Below are positions 28,270 through 48,253 of a stretch of 64,000 nt of DNA, piece after piece (the stretch's first letter is position 1; every line of letters begins with the position of its first letter). The stretch spans positions 4,544,001-4,608,000 of the forward strand of contig OY970166.1 of NCBI GenBank assembly GCA_963706595.1, in the 5' to 3' direction. Source of the stretch: an uncultured cyanobacterium. GTDB lineage: Bacteria > Cyanobacteriota > Cyanobacteriia > Cyanobacteriales > Nostocaceae. The translations under genes and the position numbers were made by a program. The notes beneath the pieces are model-generated. The model made no database searches, was not told the DNA's origin, and saw only the letters and a program-made list of their open reading frames with translations.

Positions 28270-28283
28270 AATTAACTCTTTCT

Positions 28284-30977: not shown

Positions 30978-31162
30978 TAGCCTCTAGTAAAAGAGGCAGG
31001 GGAGCAGGGTGTGGGGGGCAGGGGGGAAGACTGAGACGGAGCTTGTACCCCTTCCCCTCTGCCTCTTCGGTGAGGCTAGCAAAAGCGATCGCTTGCCCTC
31101 TTTCCCTTCTAAGCCAGTAAATTTAGTCATCACATCAGGTTGCTATAGTGAATCCCCAATAG

Positions 31163-32118: not shown

Positions 32119-32147
32119 TCAATTGCTCCAATGCTTAGTAATGGTTT

Positions 32148-33167
32148 TTAGAGATAATCAATTGCGATGATCACAACGTCACCATTGCCGGCGGCTTCAG
32201 AGGTAAAAGGAATATTTGCGCTGATAGTGGCGACTCCAGCTTCCAGGTCGAATTGGACCTGAACGTTGTCCGGCTGGGAATCAGTGGGAACCACAAGTTT
32301 TTCACTAGCAGCCAACAAAGTAGAAATTTCAATGAAGGCTTCCATGATAGTACTAGACTTTAGATCACCGCCGCCATTGACAAAACCAGAATAAGTAGAA
32401 CCCAAGTAATCTTGTGCAACAATTTTGGTAGAACCATCTGTTTGTGCAGTTGCAATAATAGGAATTGTTGCTGCAACTGAAATAGTTCCAGTGTCGAACG
32501 AAACGGTGGTAGCTAGGTTTCTTCGTGGGGTTAGTCCTGGGTTAGCTCCATTCCGAGCTTGTTCTGCCGCATCCATAGCCCTGGCCACTTCAAAGAATGC
32601 CGATGGAATTTGTGTAGCGTTTAAAGTTCCCGCAGTTCCTGGGTCAAATGTACTCATTCGTTCCTCGCTGTAAAAAATGTAGTAACCGTATTTGTAATCA
32701 GTTGTAGCCCGGAATTGTCCCAAATTGGCGGGGACAAACCAATCTAGATTCTTTGGGCTTAAGGTCGAAGAACCCACCGCAGTTAAAGAGACTGAACCGG
32801 GAATAAATAACTTATTCTGCCGAAATACTAAATTAAATGCGGATTTCGAGAAAAAATCTTGAATTGGTGGTGGTACATTATCAATTACTTCCTGCCAGTC
32901 AATGCTTGCAGTTTTTCCATTGGGGAATGTAATCGATGGGGCAGACTGGCTTTTGTTAGAACTTTTAGTTTTGACTATAGGAGTCTTAGGGAGTAAAATA
33001 TACCAATTTCGTTTCCATTTGTAAGCTATAGCTATCCCTTTCTTTAGCAGTCTCTTGAATAGCTTTAATAAATAAGTGTCTGCAAAATTGGTTATTTTAG
33101 CGAGGTCAGATAATTTAATTGCTAAATGCCCATTGATAACATAAATTTCAAATAGTTCTACCCTCAT
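32148..33167 (-). CDS. Element protein: basic N-terminal part in frame with an internally duplicated, structural-protein-like C-terminal domain (internal start at about 32657)
   Basis: 339-aa ORF; GAGG RBS precedes internal MSTFDPG; two repeats each ending in DYL. Confidence 0.7.
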   Translation of the reverse strand: MRVELFEIYVINGHLAIKLSDLAKITNFADTYLLKLFKRLLKKGIAIAYKWKRNWYILLPKTPIVKTKSSNKSQSAPSITFPNGKTASIDWQEVIDNVPPPIQDFFSKSAFNLVFRQNKLFIPGSVSLTAVGSSTLSPKNLDWFVPANLGQFRATTDYKYGYYIFYSEERMSTFDPGTAGTLNATQIPSAFFEVARAMDAAEQARNGANPGLTPRRNLATTVSFDTGTISVAATIPIIATAQTDGSTKIVAQDYLGSTYSGFVNGGGDLKSSTIMEAFIEISTLLAASEKLVVPTDSQPDNVQVQFDLEAGVATISANIPFTSEAAGNGDVVIIAIDYL

Positions 33168-35920
33168 GATTTCTTTTTATCTTTATCTCTCAAAGACAAA
33201 CTCCAAGTAGGCATATTATCTTTCTGCCCAGTTTTGAAGAAATGCACTCTAACCGGAACTACACGAACTTGTTTGTAGACTCCAGGGCGTTCGCCAATCT
33301 TGGGCGGTTGAATGTCTTTTAGGTATTTAGGGGCAATGTATGCTTTGAAAGCATTAATTACCCTCGTACATTCCGTCTTACTTTTCGCATTGATAATTAC
33401 TTTTGAATTATCATTAAGAACCAGAATTCCTTCAAAGTTTCCTTTTTCATATTGAGGAAATTTAGGCTTGAAATCCTTTCCTTTATTGTAGTGAGGAATT
33501 GTTATAGCCCATCGACTGCGACCAATTTTACCATCTTCAAAAACCTCAGCGTATTGAATGACTAACTGCGGACGCTGAAAAACTCGCACTTGCCACCACT
33601 CAGGAGTCACTAAATAGGAATCTTCATTATTTTTAGCTTCACATAATTTTGTGTTAGCCTTAGCCATCTCGGCATAAGAATTGCGAACTTTATTTATTTC
33701 ATTTCCTGTGGAGGTTGCCAAAACTTTGATTGTTATTTCCTTAGTTTCAGGTGTCCATACACCATCGCTTTCAGTACAAAGAATAGTATCAACTTTTATC
33801 TCTACCCAAGAAATATTAGAGGTGCATCGCTGTACTTGAGTACTAGTTTGATTCACAACATTAGTCAAACTATTGACTTGGTTATTAGTTGCATTGGTAA
33901 CGTTGGTCAGATTAGTGACTTGGTTATTAGTTGCATTGGTAACGTTGGTCAGATTAGTGACTTGGTTATTAGTTGCATTGGTAACGTTGGTCAGATTAGT
34001 GACTTGGTTATTAGTTGCATTGGTAACGTTGGTCAGATTAGTGACTTGGTTATTAGTTGCATTGGTAACGTTGGTCAGATTAGTGACTTGGTTATTCGTT
34101 GCGTTGGTAACGTTGGTCAGATTAGTGACTTGGTTATTAGTTGCATTGGTAACGTTGGTCAGATTAGTGACTTGGTTATTCGTTGCGTTGGTAACATTGG
34201 TCAAGTTGCTGACTTGGTTATTAGTTGCGTTGGTAACATTGGTCAAGTTGGTGACTTGAGTACCAAGTTTTGTAATATTTTGATTTGCATTATTAACTAT
34301 ATTTCCAGTATTTATAACTGTTGGTCTGAGAGCGGTGACAGCACTAGCAGTAGCCAATGAAGTAGTATTTAGTGCCACAGCCTGACCTTGTAAAGCTGCT
34401 ACTTGTCCCTGTAAAGCTGCTACTTGTCCTTGCAAAGCAAATACTTGAGTTGTGACAGGAACGATGGCCGCAGTTTGCGCAACCGTAGCTAGTGGCGATG
34501 CCTGATACCACATATTTAAGCCTTCAGGAAAGCATTTACCATTTGTCATTTCCTGGCATAATGCTTCCTGCATTGCGCTAGGCAATGCGTCTGTTTTTAG
34601 CCGAATATTATTGCTCAATACCTCTACGTTGGTTATTTTTGATTGCAAAACACCCAAAGCACCAAATATACCAGCTAATTCTGCCATATTAAATTTGCCA
34701 TCCTTACCACGCTGACCAGTCAAACCACGCTGACCAGTCAAACCACGTTCTCCAGTCAAACCACGCTGACCAGTCAAACCACGTTCTCCAGTCAAACCAC
34801 GCTGACCAGTCAAACCACGCTGACCAGTCAAACCACGCTGACCAGTCAAACCACGCTGACCAGTCAAACCACGTTCTCCAGTCAAACCACGCTGACCAGT
34901 CAAACCACGCTGACCAGTCAAACCACGTTCTCCAGTCAAACCACGCTGACCAGTCAAACCACGCTGACCAGTCAAACCACGCTGACCAGTCAAACCACGT
35001 TCTCCAGTCAAACCACGCTGACCAGTCAAACCACGTTCTCCAGTCAAACCACGCTGACCAGTCAAACCACGCTGACCAGTCAAACCACGCTGACCAGTCA
35101 AACCACGCTGACCAGTCAAACCACGTTCTCCAGTCAAACCACGCTGACCAGTCAAACCACGCTGACCAGTCAAACCACGTTCTCCAGTCAAACCACGCTG
35201 ACCAGTCAAACCACGCTGACCAGTCAAACCACGCTGACCAGTCAAACCACGTTCTCCAGTCAAACCACGCTGACCAGTCAAACCACGCTGACCAGTCAAA
35301 CCACGTTCTCCAGTCAAACCACGCTGACCAGTCAAACCACGCTGACCAGTCAAACCACGCTGACCAGTCAAACCACGCTGACCAGTCAAACCACGCTGAC
35401 CAGTCAAACCACGCTGACCAGTCAAACCACGTTCCCCCTGAAGTCCTCGCGGTCCGGGGATAGCTTTTGCTCTTAGTGCCGATTCAGCCGTAGCTAATGC
35501 TTGATTGGCAGTATTTTTAATGGGTAAAAGTAATCCCAGCACGCGAGAAATATCAGCCCCAAGCGCTGATAAACCACGCTCTACAGCATCAATTCTCGCC
35601 CCTAGTACTTGCAGTGCTGCAATTGATGCCAAGATTCCCGTAATAGTAAATGCTAATGCGGCGACCTTAGTCGCGGCGGCGGCGGCGGCGGCGGCGGCTC
35701 CCTTGGCGATTGCTTCTATAGCGAGAAATTTTATTGCCAGCCCTGCGATCGCAGCTGCTATTAATTGCTCGGTACGAGGCATGATTAGAGCCTCAGCCCC
35801 GGCTATGGAAGATTGGATAATTTGAGGTTTTTCACTCTTCAGAACATACTTTCCATCCAGGGCGGCGATCGCCGCACTCAAAGCAGCAATTTCGCCCGAT
35901 ATTTCGTTACAAGAACTCAC
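33164..35920 (-). CDS. Collagen-like / coiled-coil fibre protein (spike or tail-fibre-like)
   Basis: Ala-rich hydrophobic N-terminus, 40 x GLTG(Q/E)R, ALQGQVA repeats, about 9 x NQVTNLTNVTNATN, globular basic C-domain. Confidence 0.85.
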   Translation of the reverse strand: MSSCNEISGEIAALSAAIAALDGKYVLKSEKPQIIQSSIAGAEALIMPRTEQLIAAAIAGLAIKFLAIEAIAKGAAAAAAAAATKVAALAFTITGILASIAALQVLGARIDAVERGLSALGADISRVLGLLLPIKNTANQALATAESALRAKAIPGPRGLQGERGLTGQRGLTGQRGLTGQRGLTGQRGLTGQRGLTGQRGLTGERGLTGQRGLTGQRGLTGERGLTGQRGLTGQRGLTGQRGLTGERGLTGQRGLTGQRGLTGERGLTGQRGLTGQRGLTGQRGLTGQRGLTGERGLTGQRGLTGERGLTGQRGLTGQRGLTGQRGLTGERGLTGQRGLTGQRGLTGERGLTGQRGLTGQRGLTGQRGLTGQRGLTGERGLTGQRGLTGERGLTGQRGLTGQRGKDGKFNMAELAGIFGALGVLQSKITNVEVLSNNIRLKTDALPSAMQEALCQEMTNGKCFPEGLNMWYQASPLATVAQTAAIVPVTTQVFALQGQVAALQGQVAALQGQAVALNTTSLATASAVTALRPTVINTGNIVNNANQNITKLGTQVTNLTNVTNATNNQVSNLTNVTNATNNQVTNLTNVTNATNNQVTNLTNVTNATNNQVTNLTNVTNATNNQVTNLTNVTNATNNQVTNLTNVTNATNNQVTNLTNVTNATNNQVTNLTNVTNATNNQVNSLTNVVNQTSTQVQRCTSNISWVEIKVDTILCTESDGVWTPETKEITIKVLATSTGNEINKVRNSYAEMAKANTKLCEAKNNEDSYLVTPEWWQVRVFQRPQLVIQYAEVFEDGKIGRSRWAITIPHYNKGKDFKPKFPQYEKGNFEGILVLNDNSKVIINAKSKTECTRVINAFKAYIAPKYLKDIQPPKIGERPGVYKQVRVVPVRVHFFKTGQKDNMPTWSLSLRDKDKKKS
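33875..34260. repeat. 42-bp coding tandem repeat, about 9 copies
   Basis: GACTTGGTTATTAGTTGCATTGGTAACGTTGGTCAGATTAGT unit, encoding a 14-aa double heptad. Confidence 0.95.
34709..35428. repeat. 18-bp coding tandem repeat, 40 copies (collagen Gly-X-Y)
   Basis: ACGCTGACCAGTCAAACC / ACGTTCTCCAGTCAAACC units; 720 bp. Confidence 0.97.
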
Positions 35921-36277
35921 TCATTTAATCCCCGCGATTTGTGCGCGCAATGCCGACAATTCATTGAAAATACGCTTGCAATCCAAGCAGCAATCGCCGC
36001 AGTCCAGGTTATTAGGCGGGCAAGGCGATTCACACTCTGTACAGCTACCAGAGGTATTTCCGGATATTGGAGCGCTAGTTCTTGCTTCGGATAAGCTCTG
36101 AGTACCGCTCCGATAGTAATACCAATGAGCCACTTGCCGGACTCCATCTACTATCAGATGGTATCCCAGTCCATTGAAGGAGTAAGATGCGGCATATCCA
36201 CAAGCAAAATGCTCGTAATAAGCATCATTATTGACACCTTGTCCTGAAAATCGCCAGCATTTCTTAGCCGCCGCCAT
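35921..36277 (-). CDS. Cys-rich hypothetical protein of the element
   Basis: CTECESPCPPNNLDCGDCCLDC followed by a short coiled coil; translationally coupled to both neighbours. Confidence 0.72.
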   Translation of the reverse strand: MAAAKKCWRFSGQGVNNDAYYEHFACGYAASYSFNGLGYHLIVDGVRQVAHWYYYRSGTQSLSEARTSAPISGNTSGSCTECESPCPPNNLDCGDCCLDCKRIFNELSALRAQIAGIK

Positions 36278-36630
36278 TAGTAATCATTCGGATCGCGAAC
36301 GTTGTCCGTGGATGGTTTCCACAAGTTAATCGTTATGGGGTCGTTTCTGTATTCAATTGCGGGTTCACCCCGTTGGGTGATATTTGAAAATCCATCTTCA
36401 AGCACAATTGACTGCTCAAGATTAGTCTCAAAGTTAGCTGGTGATAAATAAGCTTTAGCACCCAAAACAATACTGACTAAATGTCCTTCAGCTGTTGCCG
36501 TTTCTGGAGTCGTCAACCCAGATGCCACTAACGCACTATCGGGAATGAATAACCCTGCCTCTGGTGCTGGGTGTGTCACCGCTAAACGTACTGCCCCAAT
36601 GCCAAAAATTTGAGGGATGGTTGGTTCCAT
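36277..36630 (-). CDS. Hypothetical protein, first gene of the leftward structural-type operon
   Basis: 117 aa; stop overlaps the next start (TAATG). Confidence 0.75.
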   Translation of the reverse strand: MEPTIPQIFGIGAVRLAVTHPAPEAGLFIPDSALVASGLTTPETATAEGHLVSIVLGAKAYLSPANFETNLEQSIVLEDGFSNITQRGEPAIEYRNDPITINLWKPSTDNVRDPNDY

Positions 36631-36671
36631 GAATCTTTATCAATATTGTTAATACATAATTAATAATTCAA

Positions 36672-36755
36672 TACATCAATGATGTAAACTTCCACTTTTA
36701 TGTAAAACTGGAACAATTATTAATACGCTCAAACTATTGGCACTACTGGGTTTGA
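36672..36755. promoter_or_regulatory. Cluster of inverted repeats upstream of the tyrosine recombinase (candidate res/operator site)
   Basis: TACATCA-a-TGATGTA (36672-36686); TTCCACTTTTA-tg-TAAAACTGGAA (36690-36713); TCAAAC...GTTTGA. Confidence 0.5.
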
Positions 36756-36831
36756 TGGCTACACTAATGATATCTGAAATATCAAATATTCCAGATTAAC
36801 CAATTAGGATGGTTAAAGATGAAGTGATTTT

Positions 36832-37413
36832 ATGAAAAACAACAGGCATGGACAAGCTGAAATTTTAACTAATTCGGAATTTTATAAAATTCGCCAACAC
36901 ATTAAAAGTAAAAAATATAAATTACTTCTTGACCTGGCGTGGTACACGGGGGAGAGGTGGGGCGCAATTACAAAATTAAAAGTTGAAGATGTCTATAATT
37001 CTGATGGTAGCCCTAGATGTGAGATTACTTTTCGTGCTGCCACACGCAAAGCCGCGCCAGACGGAGTAAGAAAAACTAGACAGTTACCAGTTCATACTGT
37101 TCTGGAAGAGTCGTTATTATCCTACAAGCCGGAATTTAACTCTGTTTGGTTGTTCCCGTGTCGGGATGGGTTGAAGCCGATTAGCTTCAAATGGGCAGAT
37201 TTGATTTTTCGCACTGCCGTAGAAAATGCTGGACTAGCCACCAAGGGGATTAGTACCCATAGCACCCGCCGGACTTTCATTACCAAACTGCACAGGCAAG
37301 GCACAGATTTGTACACAATAAAGAAAATTACAGGACACCAAGATTTTAAATCACTAGAAAAATACGTAGAAATTGATTGCGATCGCGTCAAAGGCGCTAT
37401 CAACACATTGTGA
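36832..37413 (+). CDS. Short tyrosine recombinase (catalytic domain only, resolvase-like)
   Basis: TGER, HSTRRT, TGHQ, KY: the R-H-R-H-Y residues are present; 193 aa. Confidence 0.92.
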   Translation: MKNNRHGQAEILTNSEFYKIRQHIKSKKYKLLLDLAWYTGERWGAITKLKVEDVYNSDGSPRCEITFRAATRKAAPDGVRKTRQLPVHTVLEESLLSYKPEFNSVWLFPCRDGLKPISFKWADLIFRTAVENAGLATKGISTHSTRRTFITKLHRQGTDLYTIKKITGHQDFKSLEKYVEIDCDRVKGAINTL

Positions 37414-37495
37414 TATATTTGTACTAGTAAACTGGCTGATAAGATGCACCCCTGAATGAGGAAATATGGTCTAGCGCGTAGACCATACCTTTTTT

Positions 37496-38365
37496 TCAAA
37501 GCTTGTAACCATTCATGCCAAAACCACCGCGAATGAAGTTTTTAATTTCACTCGGCGATTTACCCTGCGCAATCGCACTCTCAACCATCTGCTTTCTATC
37601 AATGGCCATCGGATTTTCATAATTTCCCCCAGGAATATGGATGTGATGAATCCCACGCACATAGTAGCAATACCGGAAATACCAGTGCTTTACACCTGAA
37701 CGCTTAACATAATATTCCTCAACCCATTGGTTATTACGTTGTTCTGGAAGAGTAGGAGTGTGCGGTTGTAAATCTTGTTCTGGAAGTTCTGGAAAAGGAA
37801 GAGTGAGTTCTATAAAATCACCATCGTTAAAGTCTGACTCTTCCAGAACATCGTCCAAAGCACGGGACATCATTTCATCCCGGTCAGGTGGCGGAACTCT
37901 CTCACCTGGGTAAGTTTCATTTATGAACTCAATCGCGTCAAGTTCAGCATCCAAATGGGTGTTGTAGTTGCCCTGGAAAGTTCCACAGAGCAGGTAGTCA
38001 TCGTAGACAGTCCATTGAATTTGGTTGTTAGGTAATTTAAAAAACTTGCAAGTATAACCACGGTAATTCTTCTGCCACCGATGCTTTTCATCAGATGTCG
38101 TAGTGTCTACATTAGGTTCTTCCAGAACACTGAATCCTTCTGGCATCGGAAACCGTGACTGCCAATCACTAAACCGCAATTCAAACTCTGCAAGTGAATC
38201 ACAATCGTCTGGCTCTGGTGGTTCTTGGGAATCGTCGTAAAAAAGTGTGAGTTGACCGTTCTCATCTCTTCCAGAAAACTCAGCGTCTAGTATTACTTCA
38301 TCCCAAAAAGGATCATGAACAGTCTTGACGGTGGTGTACTGCTCAACGTCGAATAATAGTGTCAT
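37496..38365 (-). CDS. Hypothetical acidic protein of the element
   Basis: 289 aa; GQLTLF motif; C-terminal WYFRYCY...HIHIPGGN domain. Confidence 0.75.
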   Translation of the reverse strand: MTLLFDVEQYTTVKTVHDPFWDEVILDAEFSGRDENGQLTLFYDDSQEPPEPDDCDSLAEFELRFSDWQSRFPMPEGFSVLEEPNVDTTTSDEKHRWQKNYRGYTCKFFKLPNNQIQWTVYDDYLLCGTFQGNYNTHLDAELDAIEFINETYPGERVPPPDRDEMMSRALDDVLEESDFNDGDFIELTLPFPELPEQDLQPHTPTLPEQRNNQWVEEYYVKRSGVKHWYFRYCYYVRGIHHIHIPGGNYENPMAIDRKQMVESAIAQGKSPSEIKNFIRGGFGMNGYKL

Positions 38366-38368
38366 TGG

Positions 38369-39256
38369 TTATTGGTTATTGGTTATCAGTCGTTGGGGAT
38401 ATCGCTGCATCATTTCTTTGAGGTCGTGGGGATTACCGTCATTGTCATACACCGTCACCCCTCCTGAAATAGCACTGACAATTCCTTGTTGCCTCGCCCA
38501 ATTGAACCAGATGCTCAATTCAGAAGTCACTGTGTTCTTAGGCTTCTCCCCAGTTTTGCAGCTGTTGATGAATAAGCCTGTGGGATTGCTGCACCACCCT
38601 TCATTAACTGCTTCTTTTACACGAGCTACAGCACTGGCGACATTGCCCCAGTATTTCTTGATTACACCCAAGCAAGGTTCTGGGTTAATCCTCAGTGTTC
38701 TTAATTCAATGCAAACCTGCCCAACTTCAGCTTTAGTAGGCGCTGCGGGTGCAATTACCTCATGCTCTTGTTCAATTTCTTGTTCATGATCATCAATGAA
38801 AGTTTCCTCAACAGCAGTGTTGTTTTCTTTTAAACTACTTAAGTTAGTTTTATATGTTGCGACATTTCCAGCAGGTACTTGTGGAATAATTGGCACGTCT
38901 GTGTGAAATATTTCGCATCGTTGAGAATCTACATCTGGCGCGATTCTTTCAAGATTCAACCTGTACTGACTGGCAGTATCTTTGGGAAAGCAGTGTGACG
39001 GCTGCTCATCCAAAATCCCATCAAAGACCAATTCTTTGATGTGCCGGCTGATGGTTGCCCGGCAGTAACCCAGGATGTCCGCTAGGTCTTCAAAGGTAAC
39101 TCTCACCCATTCGTGCTTGTAGTAAAGTTTGCCGTCAAACCAGGACAAGATAGCCGCCTTGCACTTCTGGCGACGGTTGAATGTGGCTAAAAATTCTCTG
39201 AGAATGTTGATAGGGGTATTAATTTCGCCAAAGGTGGCGGAGGTAAAGTTTGTCAC
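38369..39256 (-). CDS. Putative replication initiator with a winged HTH
   Basis: TFEDLADILGYCRATISRHIKELV..GIL HTH; C-terminal NPTGLFINSCK motif typical of phage/plasmid Rep C-termini; GGAGG RBS before the GTG. Confidence 0.65.
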   Translation of the reverse strand: MTNFTSATFGEINTPINILREFLATFNRRQKCKAAILSWFDGKLYYKHEWVRVTFEDLADILGYCRATISRHIKELVFDGILDEQPSHCFPKDTASQYRLNLERIAPDVDSQRCEIFHTDVPIIPQVPAGNVATYKTNLSSLKENNTAVEETFIDDHEQEIEQEHEVIAPAAPTKAEVGQVCIELRTLRINPEPCLGVIKKYWGNVASAVARVKEAVNEGWCSNPTGLFINSCKTGEKPKNTVTSELSIWFNWARQQGIVSAISGGVTVYDNDGNPHDLKEMMQRYPQRLITNNQ

Positions 39257-39324
39257 TGCTAATACCTCCGTGCTAATTGAGTCGAAAATGTGGGAATACT
39301 CATGAGGTAGCTACTGGAGTTGAG

Positions 39325-39594
39325 ATGGGTGATAAATTTGGTTTAAGCCCCAGTGATGTTGTGTCTATGGATGAAGACAAAAGCATTGTTGGAAGCACGT
39401 TTAAAGTCAAGGAAATGCTTCTTAGCCTAGCCGATAGGTCAATCAACGATGACTTTATTACTCAGTGGATAGGGACAGGAGTAGAGTGTGAGGTTTTGAT
39501 CAGTGGGCAGGACTGGCGGAAGGGCAAAGTGAGAATTTCTCTGGAGTTCATTCCTGACCAGCCACTGTCACCACTTGATGATCTGCGGGAATAA
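39325..39594 (+). CDS. KGK domain protein
   Basis: GVECEVL...WRKGKVRISLEF.PD..SPLDDLR. Confidence 0.88.
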   Translation: MGDKFGLSPSDVVSMDEDKSIVGSTFKVKEMLLSLADRSINDDFITQWIGTGVECEVLISGQDWRKGKVRISLEFIPDQPLSPLDDLRE

Positions 39595-39646
39595 CTGAAA
39601 TAGTCACCACGAAAAAACCGTCCTGACCTGTGGTAGGTGGACGGTT

Positions 39647-39979
39647 CTATTCAGAATCTTGAATTTCGGAAATCTGCTTTAACTCTTCAATTCTTTGTCT
39701 CAGAAGGCTTGCTTGTTGTTCATGATATGCCAGCTGTTTGTCAGCCTCACAAATTAGCTGGCTGAGAAGTTTCCCAGCGATTCCTTCAACCGACTCCCCT
39801 CTGAGGACAGATATATCTGACTTGTGGCTATCTTCTCCACAAGCTCTGATCTGGTAAGTCCCATGCTCTGTGCTAACTCCTGAAAAAGTTCCCAAGCATC
39901 GGGATTCACTTTTAAGCTTACCCCCTTGGTTTCCCGTCCTTTGGGCCGTCCCGTTCTCGCCATAGTAATTGTCCTGCAT
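39647..39979 (-). CDS. Possible overlapping coiled-coil ORF
   Basis: 110-aa ORF with C-terminal coiled coil, overlapping the RHH gene in another frame; start uncertain. Confidence 0.4.
   Translation of the reverse strand: MQDNYYGENGTAQRTGNQGGKLKSESRCLGTFSGVSTEHGTYQIRACGEDSHKSDISVLRGESVEGIAGKLLSQLICEADKQLAYHEQQASLLRQRIEELKQISEIQDSE
39754..39963 (-). CDS. Ribbon-helix-helix (CopG-like) repressor
   Basis: KGVSLKV..DAWELFQELAQSMGLTRSELVEKIA; AGGA RBS. Confidence 0.8.
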   Translation of the reverse strand: MARTGRPKGRETKGVSLKVNPDAWELFQELAQSMGLTRSELVEKIATSQIYLSSEGSRLKESLGNFSAS

Positions 39980-39997
39980 AATATTCTGCTTTTAATT

Positions 39998-40085
39998 ATT
40001 GCATATCCAAAAATCCATTAATTAATATTGACACAGGATATCTGGATATGCAATAGTAAGATTGTTGGATTTTTGGATATCCAAT
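39998..40085. promoter_or_regulatory. Divergent promoter region with operator repeats
   Basis: 20-bp inverted repeat with 19/20 match: ATTGCATATCCAAAAATCCA (39998-40017) / TGGATTTTTGGATATCCAAT (40066-40085); third half-site 40043-40055; TTGACA at 40028. Confidence 0.75.
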
Positions 40086-40427
40086 AGCTCCCACCCCACA
40101 CCGGGGATTACCACACGGAGCAAGCACCCACGCCTAGAACTTGCGTGGAACAACCTTGACCAATGACTAATATCAGCGCTTGCGCTTCACCAAAGCGCTG
40201 CAAACTTGTTCTTTCATGGAGGGAAACTTAGACGACAATCATCAAAAAAACCAGGGATAAACACTCTTTTTTCATTTCCCCAGTAAAGGCTAATTACTGG
40301 GGTTTCTCCCTAACACAAGCCAATTTGTCACTGAATTTATAAGGTTTTCTTGGTGGTGTTGCGGCATCACCAAGTTTCTCATAATGTCTGCGTTAATGTC
40401 TGCATTGCACATATAACCATCAAAACT

Positions 40428-40586
40428 ATGAGCTATAAACAAGCCTCACCCTGGGCTGTCTTTAGAGTAGAAGATTTTGGAAATCTTTTACTAACAAGAT
40501 TCCGCAAGCGTAGCGACGCTGATGAATATGCAAAACTTCTCAGAAACAACACACCCTACAAAATTGAGGTGGTATTCGACGTATGA
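40428..40586 (+). CDS. Small hypothetical protein
   Basis: MSYKQASPWAVFR...RFRKRSDADEY...EVVFDV; ATGA overlap with the next gene. Confidence 0.7.
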   Translation: MSYKQASPWAVFRVEDFGNLLLTRFRKRSDADEYAKLLRNNTPYKIEVVFDV

Positions 40587-40867
40587 CACAAAAATCACTA
40601 TTACCCTACGATGGCAATTACGCTTTAATTCACAAGCGGACGCTACTGGTTAACAGTATGGTTTTGACTGCGATGACAGAATTTATCTCGCAAAATTCAT
40701 CTATCACAAGCGAACAACTAGCTCTACTGTTTGGTGAAACTGCTAATAAAATTGTTGCTGCTATGTCCGATGAAACAGTCAATGCCAACGCTTGCGGCTT
40801 AATTTCAAAGTCCATCATAAACAATGGCGTTTCTTCATTTGTTGAATACCATTCCAGTAAAGAATAA
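40583..40867 (+). CDS. Hypothetical protein
   Basis: 94 aa; GAGG RBS; coupled to neighbours. Confidence 0.65.
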   Translation: MTQKSLLPYDGNYALIHKRTLLVNSMVLTAMTEFISQNSSITSEQLALLFGETANKIVAAMSDETVNANACGLISKSIINNGVSSFVEYHSSKE

Positions 40868-40871
40868 CATC

Positions 40872-41240
40872 ATGAAAATTAAAACTATCACTTATCAACG
40901 AGTTCTCAACCTGGGGAATTATGAAAGCAAGCGGTTAGACATGACTATCGAAGTTGACGCAAATCTTGAATTTGCAGAAGAAGAATGCTCCATCCTCATG
41001 GAATCTGTAGAGCGTAAAATTCGAGAAGAATCTGAGGCTTTAATTCTCAATGAAATTAGAGATGCCAGAAAAAAACTGCGTGAAGTTAACAAGGAAATTG
41101 AAGCGGGTAAGCAACTTTTAGCAGAAATAGGAAAGGAATTAAACCCGGACATCGAGCCAGGACTTTCACCTTATGAAATAGCAGAAATCGACCGTAAAGT
41201 TAGAAAGGAGGCATATCTTAACCCTGACGAAGACTTTTAA
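40872..41240 (+). CDS. Phage-type hypothetical coiled-coil protein
   Basis: MKIKTITYQRVLNLGNYESKRL N-terminus followed by a coiled coil. Confidence 0.75.
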   Translation: MKIKTITYQRVLNLGNYESKRLDMTIEVDANLEFAEEECSILMESVERKIREESEALILNEIRDARKKLREVNKEIEAGKQLLAEIGKELNPDIEPGLSPYEIAEIDRKVRKEAYLNPDEDF

Positions 41241-41319
41241 GATTTAGGCGATCGCACAGTTTGGAGGAGTGCGATCGCTTTTCTTCCTTGCCAGGATAAT
41301 GAAACAAATATAACTTAAA

Positions 41320-41555
41320 ACCGCCTGAACGAGCCGGACTAACTCACCGGCGAAACGTGAGCGCTCACGTCGCGGACTGAGTTCGCAGCACATCAACTTA
41401 GGGCTTTGTTAGTGAATTAAGCTCTTGTGGCTTTCCCATCTTCGTAAGCTCGGTTGATGTGTTTTTGTGTCCCCAGTGTTTGCAGCACTGGAAGCTTTGA
41501 GACTGAATTAGGCTCTTTGGCCTTTGGGTGATTCACAAGCTGTAAGACACAATTC
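41320..41555 (+). ncRNA. IS110 bridge RNA: 5' hairpins, target-binding loop (about 41389-41461), donor-binding loop (about 41466-41551)
   Basis: Two similar stem/internal-loop/stem modules whose variable segments match the element junctions; candidate promoter TTGCCA(41288)-17 bp-TAACTT(41311); ends approximate. Confidence 0.85.
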
Positions 41556-41583
41556 ACACACCTACTCTAAGGATGAAAACTGA

Positions 41584-42771
41584 ATGACTAGAATTGTTGG
41601 GTTGGATGTTTCCAAGTCAAGTGTTTCGTGCTGTCTATTGGAGGAAAAGCCAAGGAATCCAAGAGAATTTTACTATGAATACCCCTTCAAAAAGTTTCAA
41701 AGTGATAAATTTGGATTATTGGCATTAATGGCATTGCGGCCAGAAGTTGCAATTCTTGAACCGACGGGAGTGAATTACTCCAAATTCTGGACAGAACATT
41801 TATCTCGTGCCGGGGTAGAAGTTCGCTTCGTAGGACACAAAGAACTCAGGAGTTACCGCGAAAATCACTTGGGACTGCCAGATAAAGATGATGATGCCGA
41901 CTCGTTGGCGCTGGCTTGTTATCAGTTCGACTATGGAAAAGATTTGAGCCGGTTCGTCCGGGTACGCGATCGCTTAATTTCCCGAACGAGGGAAGCAGTG
42001 CTGCGGCTTAGTCATCTTAACCGAATACAATCCCCCATCATCAACCGCATCCGTCAGGATTTGGCATGGCAGTTCCCAGAAGTTGCGCTTGTCCGTTCAA
42101 TTCGGTGTTCTGGAAGAGTGCCTTTACTTTGGGGATGGCTAGCTGGTCAGCGTGAAAGTAAAAAATATGATCGCATTTACGCCACCACCGCAGGATTAGG
42201 ATTAACCGATTCGGTAAGGTTTCACGCGCAGCGCATTTGTAGCTTACAGGCAGAAGAGCAAATTTTAGAAGATGAACTAGCAGAAATTCTCATAGATGAA
42301 CGGTTCACTCGTTACCGTGATATTTTCGCAAATTTCCAGTTTGGGGAGAGACTGCAAGCTGTGATTCTCTCCCAAATTTACCCCTTAGAAAATTTCTTGG
42401 GTGAGGATGGTAAACCAGAAATCAAAATCCGCAAAGGTAGGAAATCTGGTAAACCAACCAAACGCCACCTGTCACTAAGGCGATTTCAGAAAGCTTTGGG
42501 TGTAGCGCCTTCTCAAGAATCAAGCGGCGATATTTCTAAATCTAAAGTTTCCGGTGGATCGGCTTTGTGCCGTCGCGCCCTTTGGCAGTGGGTTTTTAGT
42601 GCAGTTGAACCTGCCAAACGCCGCACGAATCCCATGTTAAAAGAATTGGGAGAATTTCTTGATACCGAGAAATTAGCAGGCAAACCAGTCAAACTGGTAC
42701 GAATGCGAGTAGCTGTTAAAGCTGTAAAGCTGTTATTTAAAATGTTGACTAGTAACGTTATCAGTCAATAA
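41584..42771 (+). CDS. IS110-family (DEDD) bridge recombinase
   Basis: VGLDVSK (D), LEPTG (E), KDDDAD (D,D), C-terminal domain GVAPSQESSG with the catalytic-type Ser; intact 395 aa. Confidence 0.93.
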   Translation: MTRIVGLDVSKSSVSCCLLEEKPRNPREFYYEYPFKKFQSDKFGLLALMALRPEVAILEPTGVNYSKFWTEHLSRAGVEVRFVGHKELRSYRENHLGLPDKDDDADSLALACYQFDYGKDLSRFVRVRDRLISRTREAVLRLSHLNRIQSPIINRIRQDLAWQFPEVALVRSIRCSGRVPLLWGWLAGQRESKKYDRIYATTAGLGLTDSVRFHAQRICSLQAEEQILEDELAEILIDERFTRYRDIFANFQFGERLQAVILSQIYPLENFLGEDGKPEIKIRKGRKSGKPTKRHLSLRRFQKALGVAPSQESSGDISKSKVSGGSALCRRALWQWVFSAVEPAKRRTNPMLKELGEFLDTEKLAGKPVKLVRMRVAVKAVKLLFKMLTSNVISQ

Positions 42772-42872
42772 CACAATGGTGGCGTAGGGAGTCGGTACAA
42801 TACACGTAACAATTACGCCGCCACTATTTTATTAGACTGAAGATGGCAAAGTTATCAGTGGAAAATTAAATC

Positions 42873-43478
42873 ATGCTCGAAAATCGAGACTATACACTCA
42901 TTATCGACAAAAGCGGTAGTATGGCTACCCCAGATCAGAAAGGTGGTAGAACTAGATGGGTATCAGCACAAGAATCTACCCTAGCCTTAGCGAGTAAGTG
43001 CGAGCAATTTGATCCAGATGGCATCACTGTATATTTATTTTCTGGTAGATTCAAGCGCTACGATAATGTTACAGCCGCTAAAGTAACACAAATCTTTAAA
43101 GAAAATGACCCCTCTGGTTCTACAGATTTAGCAGGTGTGTTGAAACACGCCACGGATGATTACTTTCAACGTAAGAATGCGGGTCAAACGAAGCCCAATG
43201 GTGAAATTATTTTGGTAGTTACTGACGGCGAACCGGATGACCGTAAAGCGGTAATGAAGGTAATTATTGAAGCTTCTCGCCGGATGGATAATGATGAGGA
43301 ACTAGGTATTTCCTTCATTCAAGTTGGTACAGATGCACAAGCTACTCGCTTTCTGAAAGTGTTAGATGATGACCTCCAAGGTGCTGGAGCAAAATTTGAT
43401 ATCTGCGACACAATTACAATGGATGATATGGAGGATTTAAGTTTATCGGAAGTGCTACTAAATGCCATTACGGACTAG
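42873..43478 (+). CDS. Single-domain vWA protein
   Basis: IDKSGSM MIDAS, VTDGEPDD, FLKVLDDDL. Confidence 0.9.
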   Translation: MLENRDYTLIIDKSGSMATPDQKGGRTRWVSAQESTLALASKCEQFDPDGITVYLFSGRFKRYDNVTAAKVTQIFKENDPSGSTDLAGVLKHATDDYFQRKNAGQTKPNGEIILVVTDGEPDDRKAVMKVIIEASRRMDNDEELGISFIQVGTDAQATRFLKVLDDDLQGAGAKFDICDTITMDDMEDLSLSEVLLNAITD

Positions 43479-43574
43479 CGACCGCTGCGCGGAAGTCAAA
43501 AGTTAAAAGTCAAAAGTTAAAAGAACTTTTTGAAATGTATCCCTATTTACGCCGTGAATTACTAGCTTAAAAGC

Positions 43575-43982
43575 ATGGATTCTCTTGATAAGCTGCTAGA
43601 TGAACTCAAAGCTGAATATGATCAAACCAAACCCGCAGCATCACAACCCCAGAAAAATTCAGCCAAACCATTTACCCCACAACCACCAAAATCGTTATCT
43701 TTAGTCGATAGCCTTTTGGCAGAAGTTGGGGCTGATTTTGCAGCACAAGATGAAGTGGAGGAGTTTAAAAAACAGCAAGAATTAGCACAGGAAAAAAATC
43801 GACAAGCCCAAATCAAAGCCCAACAAATAGCAGCTTTGAAAGTTGAAGCAGAAACATGGTTGAAAAAATTAGATCCGTTTTCTTCAGAAGGACTTTGGTT
43901 TGAAAGGTTTGCTGAAAGTTACCCTTCAAAATTAGAGGCGGCGATTGAATATTTACAAAGCAACGAATCAACTCAAACTTAA
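43575..43982 (+). CDS. Slr1339-like (salt-stress) protein
   Basis: WLKKLDPFSSEGLWFERFAESYPSKLEAAIEYL C-terminus. Confidence 0.7.
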   Translation: MDSLDKLLDELKAEYDQTKPAASQPQKNSAKPFTPQPPKSLSLVDSLLAEVGADFAAQDEVEEFKKQQELAQEKNRQAQIKAQQIAALKVEAETWLKKLDPFSSEGLWFERFAESYPSKLEAAIEYLQSNESTQT

Positions 43983-43986
43983 CTTG

Positions 43987-44325
43987 CTAGTCGTTGATTG
44001 ACAAAAAGTGTTCAACAGCCCATTTATGCATTGCATAAAGAATTGGGATCAGACTTTTTCCCAAACTTGTCAATGAGTATTCTACCTTTGGGGGGATTTG
44101 TGGATAAACTTCACGATGTACAATACCGTCTTCTTCCATTTCTCGGAGTTGCTGAGTCAGCATTTTTTGGGTAATTCCCGGTAAGCCTCGCTGCAATTCC
44201 CCAAAGCGTTTGGTCTGTGAAATTAATTCTCTAATAATTAAAACTTTCCAACGCCCACCAATTACCTTTAATGTAGTTTCAACTTCGCAAGTGAGCCTGA
44301 TGTCGGTTTTTGCTTCAGCTTTCAT
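43987..44325 (-). CDS. HxlR-family transcriptional regulator
   Basis: [35 protein letters not shown]. Confidence 0.93.
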
Positions 44326-44645
44326 AAGTTAATTTTGAGTAAGTACTGTACTTTTAAGTGCCTACTTTTTCTATTAACTATACTTGATTTAAAGTCTATT
44401 TAGTAACTTTTTAGCAAATTAATTTGGGATGTTTCCTACCCATAAATATGGAGGTGAATGTTAAATTTGACAGCAGGGATTTGGCGGCATATTTAGCAAG
44501 TGGAACATTAGCAAAAATTTAGCGGCTAATTTTTTAAATTCAGAGTAAAAGTAAGTCGATAATCTACAATACCTCTAGAAATTATCTAGAGGTTTTTCTC
44601 AATAGTTCAGATAAGTTTGTTGCCAAAAACTTCGCTTTCAACTAA

Positions 44646-45149
44646 CTAAATTTGCAATGCTTTAAACCATTTAGTCACAACTGTGTTAATGGTTTGTTTA
44701 ATTTGATGTTTGCGATACCATTTTTGAAAAGCCATTTCGTATTCTTCACCTTTCGTTTGAAAGGTATTCCAAATATCCAGCCCTAATGTCAAGCCGCAAA
44801 ATAGTAAAAAATACAATGACCAAGCAAGACCGCCACCACCGACGATATCCACTAGCATCAAAAAACTGTTAATAATTGCATAATTACCAACACGTTTCTT
44901 AAATCTGCCGATGCGGTAGGAATTGAAAGCTTCTCTCTGTTGCATTTCGCTATGTTGCGATCGCCAGTCAATTTCTGCTAGGTTTAGAGAATCGGGTGAT
45001 ATATCTAACTCTTTGGCAATTTCTAACAATTGCTGATAAGAAAACTCTTTATCTTGATCATCAGCTTGACGAGCGATCGCCAACTGAAGAATACGCTGCA
45101 CATCCTCTTGGCTATAAGAACGAAGGCTCTGAGGTTCAAATGCCGTCAT
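44646..45149 (-). CDS. 2TM domain-containing protein
   Basis: YSQEDVQRILQLAIAR N-terminus and two TM helices. Confidence 0.8.
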   Translation of the reverse strand: MTAFEPQSLRSYSQEDVQRILQLAIARQADDQDKEFSYQQLLEIAKELDISPDSLNLAEIDWRSQHSEMQQREAFNSYRIGRFKKRVGNYAIINSFLMLVDIVGGGGLAWSLYFLLFCGLTLGLDIWNTFQTKGEEYEMAFQKWYRKHQIKQTINTVVTKWFKALQI

Positions 45150-45347
45150 AATTATTATCTCTTAGTGTGAGCCACCATTAATCTTGTTTGTACTATCTTT
45201 ACATTAGCAAATCTAGAAAAAAGTATGGGGTGTTGGTTATCTCCCTCATCCTCACCTTACCCCAACCCCTCTGGGAATCAGTCGCTGATGTATAAGGCAG
45301 AACCTCACCCCCAGCCCCTCTCCTTATTAAGGAGAGGGGGAATTAGA

Positions 45348-46151
45348 TTACCGGGGTTGGGGTAGTTGAAAAGCATAAATATCTTGAATAGCTTGCACCC
45401 AACCATTAGAAACAGATTCGAGGATGCGATCGCCTTTTTCCTTCGTTGCGGTTGTCGCGTCACCAATTACGCCACTTTTACTGACATCTCGCGTCGCCCA
45501 AGACACAGGTAACTTCCCCTCTAAACTCAGTAAAGTGCTTTGAGTTTGTTCTGGTGGATACTCAGCTACAGCTAAATCCATTTTTACCTGTTCTGGCAAA
45601 ATCGCCAACATAATGCTAGTTTCGGCATCTCCCGCGTGCATTCCTTGGGCAGCTTCCTTGGGTGTTAATAATTCTTTGGTAATATGAGGCACACGCCAAG
45701 TAAACAAGGGAAACACCAAAAAATCATCATATTTAATGTGCAGATCCCGCGCCACCATTTGCATAACTTGGGGTTGTCCGCCGTGGGAATTCATCAACAC
45801 CAATTTTCTAAACCCAGCCCGGTAAATACTTTCACCCATTTCCATCATAATTGCTGTCAGGGTTTCGGTACTTAAAGTTATGGTTCCGGGAAAATGCCAA
45901 TGCTCATTCGATTTACCATAATAGAGAGTGGGTAAAGCATAAGCGGGAATGCTAATATCCAGTTTTTTCAGGGCTGCTCCCAGAACTCCTACACCAATAG
46001 CCGCATCAACAATCAGTGGTAAATGAGGGCCATGTTGTTCAATCGCCCCGACTGGTTGAATGATTACCACATTTTCCTTATTCGGCATAGCCTGGATATC
46101 AGTCCAAGTCAAGTAGGGAAAAAACCGTTCTGGGGGAATAAAGCTGTGCAT
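45348..46151 (-). CDS. Creatininase family protein
   Basis: GAIEQHGPHLP, SNEH..FPGT, NSHGG, HAGDAETS. Confidence 0.92.
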   Translation of the reverse strand: MHSFIPPERFFPYLTWTDIQAMPNKENVVIIQPVGAIEQHGPHLPLIVDAAIGVGVLGAALKKLDISIPAYALPTLYYGKSNEHWHFPGTITLSTETLTAIMMEMGESIYRAGFRKLVLMNSHGGQPQVMQMVARDLHIKYDDFLVFPLFTWRVPHITKELLTPKEAAQGMHAGDAETSIMLAILPEQVKMDLAVAEYPPEQTQSTLLSLEGKLPVSWATRDVSKSGVIGDATTATKEKGDRILESVSNGWVQAIQDIYAFQLPQPR

Positions 46152-46387
46152 CTTACTACTATCGCGTCATTTTTATGTTAACGAGATTTGAAGAAGTAGG
46201 GGAGAAGAGGAACGGGGGCAGGGTGCAGGGGAGAAGAGGAATGGTTGTTAAGTAACCGGAAGTTTAAAGTAATTTTTTACTCCCCCTTGCTCCCCGCTCC
46301 CCTGCCTCTTAATTCCCCCTTGCACCCTGCACCCTGCTCCCCTGCCTCTTCATCTAGTACACCAAGCAGTAGGAAGGACAAAACTCA

Positions 46388-47095
46388 ATGATTGAAGATC
46401 ATGAATCTATTCGTACTCTATCAGTTGATATTGGTGGTAGTGGTGTTAAAGCACTGGTTTTAGATATCACAGGGAATCCCGTCACCAAAAGGATGCGTTT
46501 AGAGACACCCCAACCGGCTAAACCAGAGATGATCATTGATGCGATCGCAGTATTAGCAGCAGATCAAGGTGATTTCCATCGTGTTTCCGTGGGTTTTCCT
46601 GGTGTGGTGCGTCAGGGAGTCACAGAAACAGCCGTCAACTTATATCAAGATTGGATTGGGTTTGACTTGGAAACAGCATTATCACAACGTCTTAACAAGC
46701 CTGTACGCGTGATTAATGATGCCGATATGCAAGGTTTTGGGGCAGTAGCAGGTAAAGGTTTGGAATTGGTAATTACCTTGGGTACAGGTTTTGGTTCGGC
46801 TTTATTTATTGATGGCAAACTTGTGCCAAATATGGAAATGGGACATCATCAGTTTCGCAAGGGTAAAACCTATGAAGAACAACTGGGACGGGCAGAATTA
46901 GAGAAAATTGGTGATAAAAGATGGAATAAGCGTTTAGAGAAAGCGATCGCCTCTTTACAAAGTCTGTTCAATTATGATTACCTTTACATTGGCGGCGGTG
47001 AAGCCGTCAGAGTAAATCTCCAACTCCCCTTAAACGTCAAACTCATCCCGAATATCACTGGTTTATTAGGTGGAATTGCTTTGTGGCGAGATTAG
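46388..47095 (+). CDS. ppgK: ROK-family kinase (polyphosphate glucokinase-like)
   Basis: VDIGGSGVK, GFPGVV, NDADMQG, TLGTGFGSA, NMEMGH. Confidence 0.8.
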   Translation: MIEDHESIRTLSVDIGGSGVKALVLDITGNPVTKRMRLETPQPAKPEMIIDAIAVLAADQGDFHRVSVGFPGVVRQGVTETAVNLYQDWIGFDLETALSQRLNKPVRVINDADMQGFGAVAGKGLELVITLGTGFGSALFIDGKLVPNMEMGHHQFRKGKTYEEQLGRAELEKIGDKRWNKRLEKAIASLQSLFNYDYLYIGGGEAVRVNLQLPLNVKLIPNITGLLGGIALWRD

Positions 47096-47233
47096 CTAGG
47101 GAGTGGGGAGTGGGGAGTGGGGAGTAGGGCGCGTTCATACTCTCTGAAATCTACCTGCTGCGTAAGTCCCACGAAAGATGTCCAAATTAATTATCCAACT
47201 TATCCATAAAAGAAAGGATAGGGATAATTAACC

Positions 47234-48253
47234 ATGCAATTAAAGCCCATTAATCAGCAAGTAGTAGCCGTCGTTGGGGCTTCTAGCGGTATCGGTAGAG
47301 AAACAGCGCTAAAGTTTGCCCAACGTGGTGCAAAGGTTGTAGCTTCAGCCCGCAGTGAACCGGGACTGAAATCTTTAGTTGAAGAAATTCGCGGATTGGG
47401 CGGTGAGGCGATATATACTATTGCCGATGTCAGTGATTTTCAGCAAGTTAAGGCGATCGCCGACAAAACTGTGGCAGAATATGGACGCTTGGATACTTGG
47501 GTTCATGCGGCCGCTACAGGTATTATCGCGCCGTTTGAGCAAATTACCCCAGAGGAATTTGAGCGAGTTGTGGATGTCACCTTGATGGGACAGGTATATG
47601 GTGCGATGGCTGCACTACCTTATCTCAAACAAGAAGGACGCGGCTCATTAATTCATATTTCCTCGATGGAGGGTAGGCGCAGTTTGCCGTTACAAAGCCC
47701 TTATTCGGCTGCAAAACACGGTTTAGAAGGTTTTTTAGAATCCTTGCGTGTGGAATTGCGACATGAGAAATTGCCGATTAATGTCACCTCAATATTGCCT
47801 TCCACAATCAACACACCCTATTACAATAAAATTCGCACCAAGCTAGGGGTAAAACCCAAGGGAATACCGCCTTATTATCAACCCAGTATTGTCACTGATG
47901 CCATTCTCTATGTTGCTGAACATCCGATGCGGGATTTTATTGTGGGAGATGCAGGGAAAGTATTAGATTTACTGCAACGGGTTTCACCGGAATTAGTCGA
48001 TGCAATTTTACTCGCGATCGCTTTTCCCGGTCAACGTACCAATGAGCCAAAATCAGAAGACGCACCAGATAATGTTTTTACCGCTATTCCTGGTTATGAC
48101 AAAATTGAGGGCGATTTTAGAAACCACTCAATCCCCAGTTTCTTAGATTGGTGGGATATGAATCCGACTTTGAAATGGGGTGCTGTGGCGCTTGGAGTCG
48201 TGAGTGTTACAGCTTTTCTGGGTGGGTGGCGTAAGAGTTCGGATTGGTCTTAG
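47234..48253 (+). CDS. SDR-family oxidoreductase
   Basis: GASSGIG, YSAAK. Confidence 0.92.
   Translation: MQLKPINQQVVAVVGASSGIGRETALKFAQRGAKVVASARSEPGLKSLVEEIRGLGGEAIYTIADVSDFQQVKAIADKTVAEYGRLDTWVHAAATGIIAPFEQITPEEFERVVDVTLMGQVYGAMAALPYLKQEGRGSLIHISSMEGRRSLPLQSPYSAAKHGLEGFLESLRVELRHEKLPINVTSILPSTINTPYYNKIRTKLGVKPKGIPPYYQPSIVTDAILYVAEHPMRDFIVGDAGKVLDLLQRVSPELVDAILLAIAFPGQRTNEPKSEDAPDNVFTAIPGYDKIEGDFRNHSIPSFLDWWDMNPTLKWGAVALGVVSVTAFLGGWRKSSDWS

Follow-up and report, generated by a model that had tools for sequence, protein, structure and literature searches.

A repeated 12-bp word within the coding sequence of a Nostocaceae mobile-element gene, and its putative recognition by the C-terminal domain of the encoded protein

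Why should one short DNA word be written several times, and in both directions, into three protein-coding genes of the same mobile element? The question is raised by a stretch of 64,000 nucleotides of contig OY970166.1 from an uncultured cyanobacterium of the Nostocaceae (the window, meaning the whole stretch of DNA that was analysed), in which a 14-bp motif, TGTTCTGGAAGAGT, recurs within an insertion of ~11.8 kb. A sequence-only reading of the window had proposed that the motif is a binding site for an element protein. The comparative analysis described here supports that proposal and points to a 289-amino acid (aa) protein, P289, encoded at 37496–38365 on the minus strand, as the likely binder; this protein was among the candidates originally named. 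The P289 gene itself carries most of the copies, and the motif is, with good though incomplete confidence, the putative recognition site of the C-terminal domain of P289, to judge by the way in which the word and that domain vary together among related elements.

A search of the window located exact copies of TGTTCTGGAAGAGT at 37098–37111 (+), 37740–37753 (+), 37837–37850 (−) and 42106–42119 (+), in agreement with the positions and strands first reported, and found none in any of 100 dinucleotide-preserving shuffles of the window (0/100). Allowing up to two mismatches added the matches at 38116–38129 (−) and 38265–38278 (−), giving six against 0.55 expected, a number reached in 0/100 shuffles. 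Throughout the 5,569,666 bases of the genome the 14-mer occurs four times, and all four occurrences are the window copies, within 5 kb of one another; the reversed control word occurs 0 times. For the shorter 11-mer TGTTCTGGAAG, 15 genomic copies were counted, six of them inside the element. The motif copies are thus not a product of chance. The genome-wide count also upholds the earlier claim that no perfect copy lies outside the element, as the host chromosome is otherwise without the 14-mer.

The copies fall in three genes. One perfect copy (37098–37111) lies in a tyrosine recombinase gene, where it is read as part of the peptide HTVLEESL (VLEE), and another (42106–42119) lies in an IS110-like recombinase gene as part of RCSGRV. 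Within the P289 gene, the perfect copy at 37740–37753 (+) appears on the gene strand as T-L-P-E-Q, immediately ahead of the C-terminal domain, while that at 37837–37850 (−) has the orientation of the gene and encodes DVLEES. Between them, at 37776–37794 (+), two overlapping partial copies, TGTTCTGGAAG and GTTCTGGAA (starts at 37776/37777 and 37786), are read on the gene strand as PELPEQ. The two-mismatch copy TGTTCTGGAAGAAC at 38116–38129 (−; partial match at 38119) encodes SVLEEP, and homologues have an SVLEE/D copy at the same position. Finally, the two-mismatch copy TTTTCTGGAAGAGA at 38265–38278 (−; partial match at 38268) encodes EFSGRD at a conserved CSGK/SGR position of the N-terminal domain of P289. 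The search thus recovered the four partial copies noted from the letters alone (37777, 37786, 38119 and 38268), and translation bore out both the host genes and the peptides VLEE, LPEQ and CSGRV.

If the word serves an element protein, homologous elements might be expected to carry enriched words of their own. A protein search returned a set of 40 homologues of P289, and 129 relatives were found in species-representative genomes, of which 80 loci were kept. P289 homologues were found in heterocystous cyanobacteria only, with 77 of the 80 loci coming from named Nostocales and 59 of these from Nostoc. The 80 loci and the window together give 81 P289-type genes. When words of the form xTT+7 were counted in each, the most frequent one began with (T)GTT and recurred within the gene, two or more times and in both orientations, in 80 of them; the one exception is locus L055, where the script returned a low-complexity word. 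Homologous elements therefore do carry a motif of their own, as the sequence-only reading had suggested testing. In nearly all of the loci the P289 homologue gene contains two to five copies of its own 12-bp word, in both orientations, in the parts that code for disordered linkers, and the P289 gene itself has three to six. The word starts with TGTT, and its right half is lineage-specific. Among 79 rows, the motif classes are TTGGGGCGC (32), TTGGGGGGC (20), TTCTGGAAG (10, the class of the window), TTCGGGAGC (5), TTCTGGAAC (4), TTCGGGCGC (2), TTCTGGAAA (2) and four singletons.

The copies of an element change in concert, and their placement along the P289 gene is kept while the sequence of the word changes. 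Across 227 copies in 63 elements, pairwise identity between copies within an element at the ends of the 12-bp block is 0.91 (position 1), 0.94 (position 2) and 0.88 (position 12), positions 3–11 being fixed by the way the copies were selected, and it falls to 0.21–0.46 in the flanks, except at position 15 (0.62), so that the block has sharp edges.

What the copies encode depends on their direction. Forward copies mostly encode V-x-x-E/Q and reverse copies mostly x-P-x-Q/H, in the pairs VLEE/LPEQ, VGAQ/APQH, VGGQ/APQH, VREQ/APEH, VGEQ/AHQH and VLEQ/APEQ, while a few copies are read in a different frame (for instance EFSGR in the window, DCSGK in L001). Because the forward and reverse peptides covary exactly as reverse complements, the constraint lies on the DNA and not on the protein, which tolerates the copies in its disordered segments. 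A constraint at the DNA level had been proposed from the window's own copies, and the coupling of peptides across homologues bears it out. In the AlphaFold model of P289 (mean predicted local distance difference test score, pLDDT, 78.6), the copies fall in linkers with pLDDT <50, at residues 25–28, 77–89 and 182–208.

The likely reader of the word is indicated by two residues in the third strand of the P289 C-terminal domain, neither of which is encoded by any motif copy. Base 5 of the motif goes with a strand-3 residue at R-x-[H/Y]-[I/L], C being paired with H in 25/25 cases and G with Y in 54/54 (79/79 overall). Base 9 goes with the residue at GRK[K/I], C being paired with K in 34/34 cases and a base other than C with I in 44/45 (78/79 overall). 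On a tree built without these two columns, the independent contrasts on supported branches are all concordant (4/4 for base 5 and 5/5 for base 9). In loci L056 and L027 the domains are nearly the same but one has K where the other has I, and the motifs show the C/G difference.

When every column was scanned, these two of P289 came out best, with 0 and 1 errors and two residue types each, and in the full-length P289 alignment the only comparable columns were those encoded by the motif copies themselves. Elsewhere, the best columns made 8 and 13 errors in the tyrosine recombinase, 5 and 12 in the IS110-like protein, and 3 and 12 in the family encoded upstream of P289, and they needed 3–13 residue types each. 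Elements that share the motif of the window have tyrosine recombinases just 36–39% identical to that of the window, while recombinases 75% identical to it go with TTGGGG motifs. IS110 subfamilies and upstream families are likewise discordant with motif class.

The C-terminal domain concerned comprises residues 208–282 of P289 (37520–37744, −) and is predicted to consist of three strands and two helices in an arrangement like that of Arm DNA-binding domains. Modelled alone it reaches a pLDDT of 89.5, with strands at 8–17, 20–30 and 34–38 and helices at 47–61 and 66–74 in domain numbering, and the model shows the three-stranded sheet packed on a helix that is characteristic of PF13356 (Arm-DNA-bind_3). 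That family is matched at E ≤1 by 37 of 50 members of the P289 family, while the next Pfam family is matched by two; the best PF13356 match is 20.2 bits (E 6.5e-4) at full length, with a best E of 9e-5 for the domain alone. In a structure search the best Z was 4.8, and the AP2 domain 6sy0_A came third (Z 4.5, root-mean-square deviation (rmsd) 3.7, 65 residues aligned); Foldseek ranked 3rmp_C, a P4-like integrase arm domain, 23rd (E 1.5). Sequence-profile searches against solved structures, with the full length and with the C-terminal domain, gave nothing better than E 0.69, and a protein atlas returned unnamed cyanobacterial clusters for the domain along with DUF6788 at 0.87, which is a lead only. 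Canonical PF13356 was found in 0/13 related genomes.

Fold searches with the full P289 model matched only a middle insert at residues 85–156, for which the best hit, 6d7k_H (Z 7.7, rmsd 2.7, 64 residues), is uninformative. As a separate observation, residues 91–151 (37913–38095, −) form an extra domain of four strands and a helix between motif copies that only the window protein and a few homologues possess; 6d7k_H is again the closest structure (Z 7.7), and an AP2 domain is matched at Z 5.6.

The N-terminal part of P289 carries QLxLF-like pentapeptides at residues 1–8 (38344–38365, −) and 37–43 (38239–38257, −). Of 71 homologues, 56 have a Qxx[LIM][FL] at the N-terminus and 42 an internal Q-x-x-[LIVM]-[FW]. 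When P289(1–75) was folded with the host sliding clamp DnaN, the score was 0.39 against 0.00 for the best control, with a partner pLDDT of at least 45 and runs agreeing in at least 6% of contacts. This mark is reached by 116 of 157 solved complexes and by 2 of 215 mismatched pairs, and passes at or below 0.60 are wrong oftener than right unless the guess was likely beforehand. The model thus lends weak support to binding of the host clamp by the P289 N-terminus.

Taken together, these features suggest a mechanism in which a ~12-bp site, made up of TGTT and a lineage-specific right half, would be read by the integrase-Arm-like C-terminal domain of P289. The linkers would accept whatever peptide the site imposes (V-x-x-E/Q forward, x-P-x-Q/H reverse), and a change in the specificity of the domain would carry all the copies in that element along with it. 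P289 would then bind its sites, and we infer that, once bound, the array acts as an assembly site in cis for the element. The array may in turn be a replication origin of the phage lambda O/ori-lambda type, with the QLxLF-like peptides tethering the host sliding clamp. Several features are in keeping with this suggestion. For instance, repeated sites for an encoded protein lie inside that protein's own gene, as at ori-lambda, with the reader assigned by covariation and its binding putative, and the window gene directly upstream of P289 is O-like. By analogy, an origin is a reasonable suggestion that falls somewhat short of being probable. The combined account, with P289 sites, an origin-type array and outlying copies of recent date, is evenly poised between being right and wrong.

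A number of observations weigh against this account. The independent contrasts are few (four and five), and each set is too small for p <0.05. Because P289 is encoded in cis to its presumed sites, shared inheritance alone would link motif class to P289 sequence, and only the two specific columns argue beyond it. Every PF13356 match is below the curated cut-off of 27 bits that membership demands, and the fold searches with the C-terminal domain were weak, Foldseek giving no match at E ≤0.001. Among the best 150 of 349 representatives, the domain is found only at the C-terminus of proteins of 63–660 aa and never in an integrase, whereas PF13356 is defined by an N-terminal position in tyrosine integrases; here the recombinase is a separate gene. 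As to an origin, no A+T-rich stretch of the kind unwound at ori-lambda lies by the array, G+C being 0.415–0.445 across 37700–38299; the lowest nearby values are 0.37 (37300–37499) and 0.31 (36700–36899). No DnaA-box word is found in the element, and the window has six against nine expected. No helicase or primase gene is present among the element genes. Nor was a circular form or a terminal overlap seen among eight loci checked (six short genome loci and two viral contigs, the latter being the only two relatives found among viral contigs). Finally, the clamp prediction is just a weak pass (0.39).

The copies outside the P289 gene count as a further difficulty, being genuine but not conserved across the family. 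Beyond that gene, an element's own 11-mer recurs in the TTCTGGAAG class alone, where 4 of 10 loci have five copies between them; these five come from 160 kb of sequence, whereas 982 kb of other-class loci contain 0 copies of the word. Four of the five are in IS110-like genes, at two different places, one in the window and the other in the clade of L002, L013 and L048, and elements of other motif classes have no own-word copy in the IS110-like gene. At the tyrosine recombinase site the closest relatives (75% identical) read VHAILAESLL, encoded by ATTCTGGCTGAGT, with 10 of 14 bases as in the motif, where the window reads VHTVLEESLL. At the IS110 site, relatives 73–80% identical read SVRGVSGKVPL, encoded by GGTGTTTCTGGAAAAGT, a near-motif with one extra T, where the window reads SIRCSGRVPL. 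Because relatives hold similar but imperfect sequences at both places, both perfect outlying copies must have arisen in the lineage of the window, by protein-altering changes from already similar sequences (in the IS110 gene, an in-frame change). They might serve as extra docking sites, for looping or for damping the two recombinase genes. The presence of the motif in the IS110 gene had been taken as a sign that this gene co-evolved with the element. The gene is indeed a core, single-copy and syntenic part of it, but the motif copy there is not conserved, and the argument drawn from that copy is not supported.

Set beside the lambda-O-like origin, which is the first choice, accessory sites for the truncated tyrosine recombinase are the close rival. 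Under this alternative, the copies would be arm-type sites, and P289 a detached arm-binding subunit that assembles or delivers a catalytic-only recombinase for multimer resolution, excision control or inversion. Integrase Arm DNA-binding is the only family that the C-terminal domain resembles. The 193-aa recombinase (36832–37413, +) matches Phage_integrase over residues 12–181 and aligns to positions 93–261 of the 263-position XerA model, and therefore lacks the N-terminal DNA-binding part. Its gene is downstream of and convergent with the P289 gene in the window and in 53 of 56 loci with at least 2.5 kb of flank, and it holds one perfect copy. Arm sites of lambda attP vary in number, orientation and spacing, and the P289 sites likewise occur in both orientations and vary in number and spacing. 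Yet the type of recombinase does not follow motif class, the two genes lie anywhere from 0 to 1.6 kb apart, and no core-type crossover site was identified. There was no inverted segment among the 81 homologous genes, with 0 of 54 minus-strand high-scoring segment pairs as long as 24 nt. Moreover, the array is internal to the integrated element and hence is not the attP used for this integration. On balance the arm-site proposal is a serious but rather improbable one.

It is unlikely, by comparison, that the copies are a centromere-like or operator array through which P289 segregates the excised element or blocks transcription of its own gene and, in the window, transcription through the two recombinase genes. 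Partition sites and autoregulated genes characteristically have clustered repeats to which a small protein of the element binds. A protein bound at the window-specific copies inside the recombinase genes could act as a roadblock, and IS110-like genes of the TTCTGGAAG class have gained copies twice independently. On the other hand, no partition ATPase is among the genes of the window element, and the 70 loci of other motif classes have no outlying copies, save one in L041. Simple autorepression would also have no need of many sites, in both orientations, within a coding region.

A role without any binding at all is very improbable. In such a scheme the copies would be linker repeats at the protein level, homogenized by gene conversion within the gene, with the outlying copies as short conversion tracts. 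The simple acidic or proline peptides that they encode in disordered linkers would suit it, as would the tandem peptide repeats containing copies in some homologues (P0028) and the derivation of the outlying copies from sequences already alike at 10 of 14 bases. Pressure on the protein, however, would not couple VGAQ with APQH or VLEE with LPEQ. The 12-bp block is sharp-edged and not codon-periodic, a different domain holds two residues that vary in step with two bases of the word, and copies keep their places though their sequence changes. A purely protein-level or conversion origin fails because it leaves the reverse-complement coupling, the sharp edges and the covariation of residues with bases unexplained.

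Least credible of all is that the word is a target or donor sequence of the element's RNA-guided IS110-family recombinase: its terminal gene is preceded by a conserved structured RNA, and a bridge-RNA guide is about as long as the word, but the longest word shared by RNA and motif is within the range of shuffled RNAs in 21/21 loci, which leaves RNA-guided recognition unsupported, the IS110 subfamily does not track motif class, and no copy lies at the element ends.

The IS110-family gene is nonetheless of interest in its own right as the rightmost gene of the element (41584–42771, +). It matches NCBIfam NF051857 at 532.4 bits against a cut-off of 180, with weak matches to Pfam DEDD_Tnp_IS110 and Transposase_20. 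Far from being a compact, multiplying insertion sequence of ~1.2–1.6 kb, it has one copy in the genome and is terminal in an 11.8-kb element. An IS110-like gene lies upstream of the P289 gene on the opposite strand, 2.3–7.2 kb away, in 62 of the 64 loci with at least 8 kb of flank. Two IS110 subfamilies, 35–38% and 59–80% identical to the window protein, are used interchangeably among loci. Directly upstream of the window gene, 41319–41583 (+) is predicted to encode a conserved structured RNA of ~250 nt, part of the element and outside the motif system. Of its 53 predicted pairs, 26 show compensatory changes across 21 loci (the window and 20 related). This structured non-coding RNA beside the IS110 recombinase gene has no Rfam match, and it is probably the bridge RNA of the NF051857 subfamily.

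The element as a whole occupies approximately 30985–42835 and is flanked by genes for a Rieske protein and a VWA-domain protein. In three congeneric genomes the alignment covers 29373–30984 of the window and resumes at 42818–42849, and because these genomes bridge the position with only 229–277 bp, the element is taken to be an insertion of ~11.8 kb; its ends are only approximate, as the empty-site spacer differs among relatives. No direct or inverted repeats longer than 12 nt were found between the two flanks. A scan for tRNA genes found none in the window and therefore no tRNA attachment site, and an Rfam scan of 28000–48000 gave just chance-level microRNA-like matches. Imperfect G-rich and C-rich palindromes occur at the left edge (30984–31110) and 3.5 kb past the right edge (46190–46357), and they look like host intergenic repeat hairpins and not element ends. 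Three sequencing runs contained only 0.05–0.07 of the sampled words, and none contained the stretch.

P289 has a single gene in this genome, and the gene directly upstream of it (38369–39256, −) encodes a winged-helix protein resembling replication initiators (phrog_678, O-like, E 5.4e-5). This gene has no homologue in the 80 loci and is peculiar to the window element. The corresponding slot is filled by one family (~230 aa) in 58 of 71 loci, by another (~340 aa) in eight, and by singletons elsewhere, including the window; the gene upstream of P289 is thus replaced non-orthologously across loci. In profile comparisons the upstream family scored a probability of 0.4% against both the window initiator-like protein and the second family, and the upstream-slot proteins of related loci matched nothing in Pfam, PHROGs or NCBIfam. 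Farther along, dense inverted repeats (39997–40086; arms of 20–26 nt, 88–90% complementary) sit in the divergent intergenic region between 39647–39979 (−) and 40350–40586 (+) as a candidate operator or other cis site. The region 33164–35920 (−) encodes a 918-aa collagen-like protein, made up of ~42 tandem copies of an 18-nt unit and 10 copies of a 42-nt unit, which matches phage tail-fibre families via its collagen repeats only and is conserved in 27 of 80 loci. Among related elements, L058 and L059 lie in tandem, 15,895 bp apart, on the chromosome of Nostoc linckia NIES-25, a third copy (L056) lies elsewhere, and L028 is on a 170-kb plasmid.

A bolder reading, doubtful as a whole, would make P289 an undescribed class of element-maintenance protein, with a detached Arm-like reader, disordered linkers and a clamp-tethering N-terminal domain, and with its sites in its own linker codons. 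Reader and sites would travel and diversify as one cassette under a two-residue, two-base code, in which H or Y reads C or G at base 5 and K or I reads C versus non-C at base 9. Such a cassette could be a portable origin or the DNA-targeting half of a split tyrosine recombinase, carried inside a 12–16-kb cargo element moved by an RNA-guided IS110-family recombinase. If this were true, it would be a natural case of a DNA-binding protein and its sites co-evolving as a unit inside a single gene, with ~10 natural specificity variants and a candidate recognition rule. It would also give a first function to a family of small proteins (as judged by the best 150 of 349 representatives) that has no Pfam model. 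The family would belong to Nostocales elements with an RNA-guided IS110-type recombinase at the end and a truncated tyrosine recombinase in mid-element, and such elements bear on the natural cargo size that IS110-type systems can move. By analogy with lambda O and its origin, sites for a reader in the reader's own gene would be an arrangement known in kind. What is apparently new is the Arm-like domain, the sites running both ways in linker codons, and an element family that appears undescribed; a limited literature search returned nothing on such Nostocales elements, which is thin support for calling the family so.

Known systems offer partial likenesses to the P289 array. Shufflons and other invertible segments also have short inverted repeats in an open reading frame adjoining a small tyrosine recombinase gene. 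Unlike theirs, the copies in the P289 gene are also direct repeats and covary with a DNA-binding domain, not with the recombinase, and the 81 homologous genes yielded no inverted variant, a weak test given that the segments are short and diverged.

Closer in form are the arm-type sites of integrases (lambda Int, P4-like, PF13356), which share with P289 a small domain of three strands and a helix, proposed sites of ~10–12 bp, and several sites in both orientations near a tyrosine recombinase gene. The P289 domain differs in being C-terminal on a separate small protein and not at the N-terminus of a recombinase, with scores below the cut-off, and its sites are in a coding region in mid-element and not at an attachment site.

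A parallel for the N-terminal part is TrfA of plasmid RK2, an iteron-binding initiator that binds the clamp through a QLSLF motif (PMC8034659). P289, if it binds DNA as predicted, would similarly be a site-specific DNA-binding protein with QLxLF-type pentapeptides outside its DNA-binding domain. The two proteins have no sequence relationship, and clamp binding by P289 is a weak in-silico pass.

Phage lambda provides the counterpart for the array, the recognition sites of O being arrayed within O's own coding sequence (PMC5043065). There are evident differences, in that the P289 reader domain is C-terminal and Arm/AP2-like whereas that of lambda O is an N-terminal winged helix, the sites here are single 12-bp words running both ways whereas lambda has four 19-bp inverted repeats, and no A+T-rich region follows the P289 array, where replication is only predicted. 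Lambdoid phages pass on sites and reader as a single module, which varies from one phage to its relatives. The P289 elements would resemble them in both respects: the site array for a putative DNA-binding protein lies inside that protein's own gene, and sites and reader pass together as one specificity module that differs from one related element to the next.

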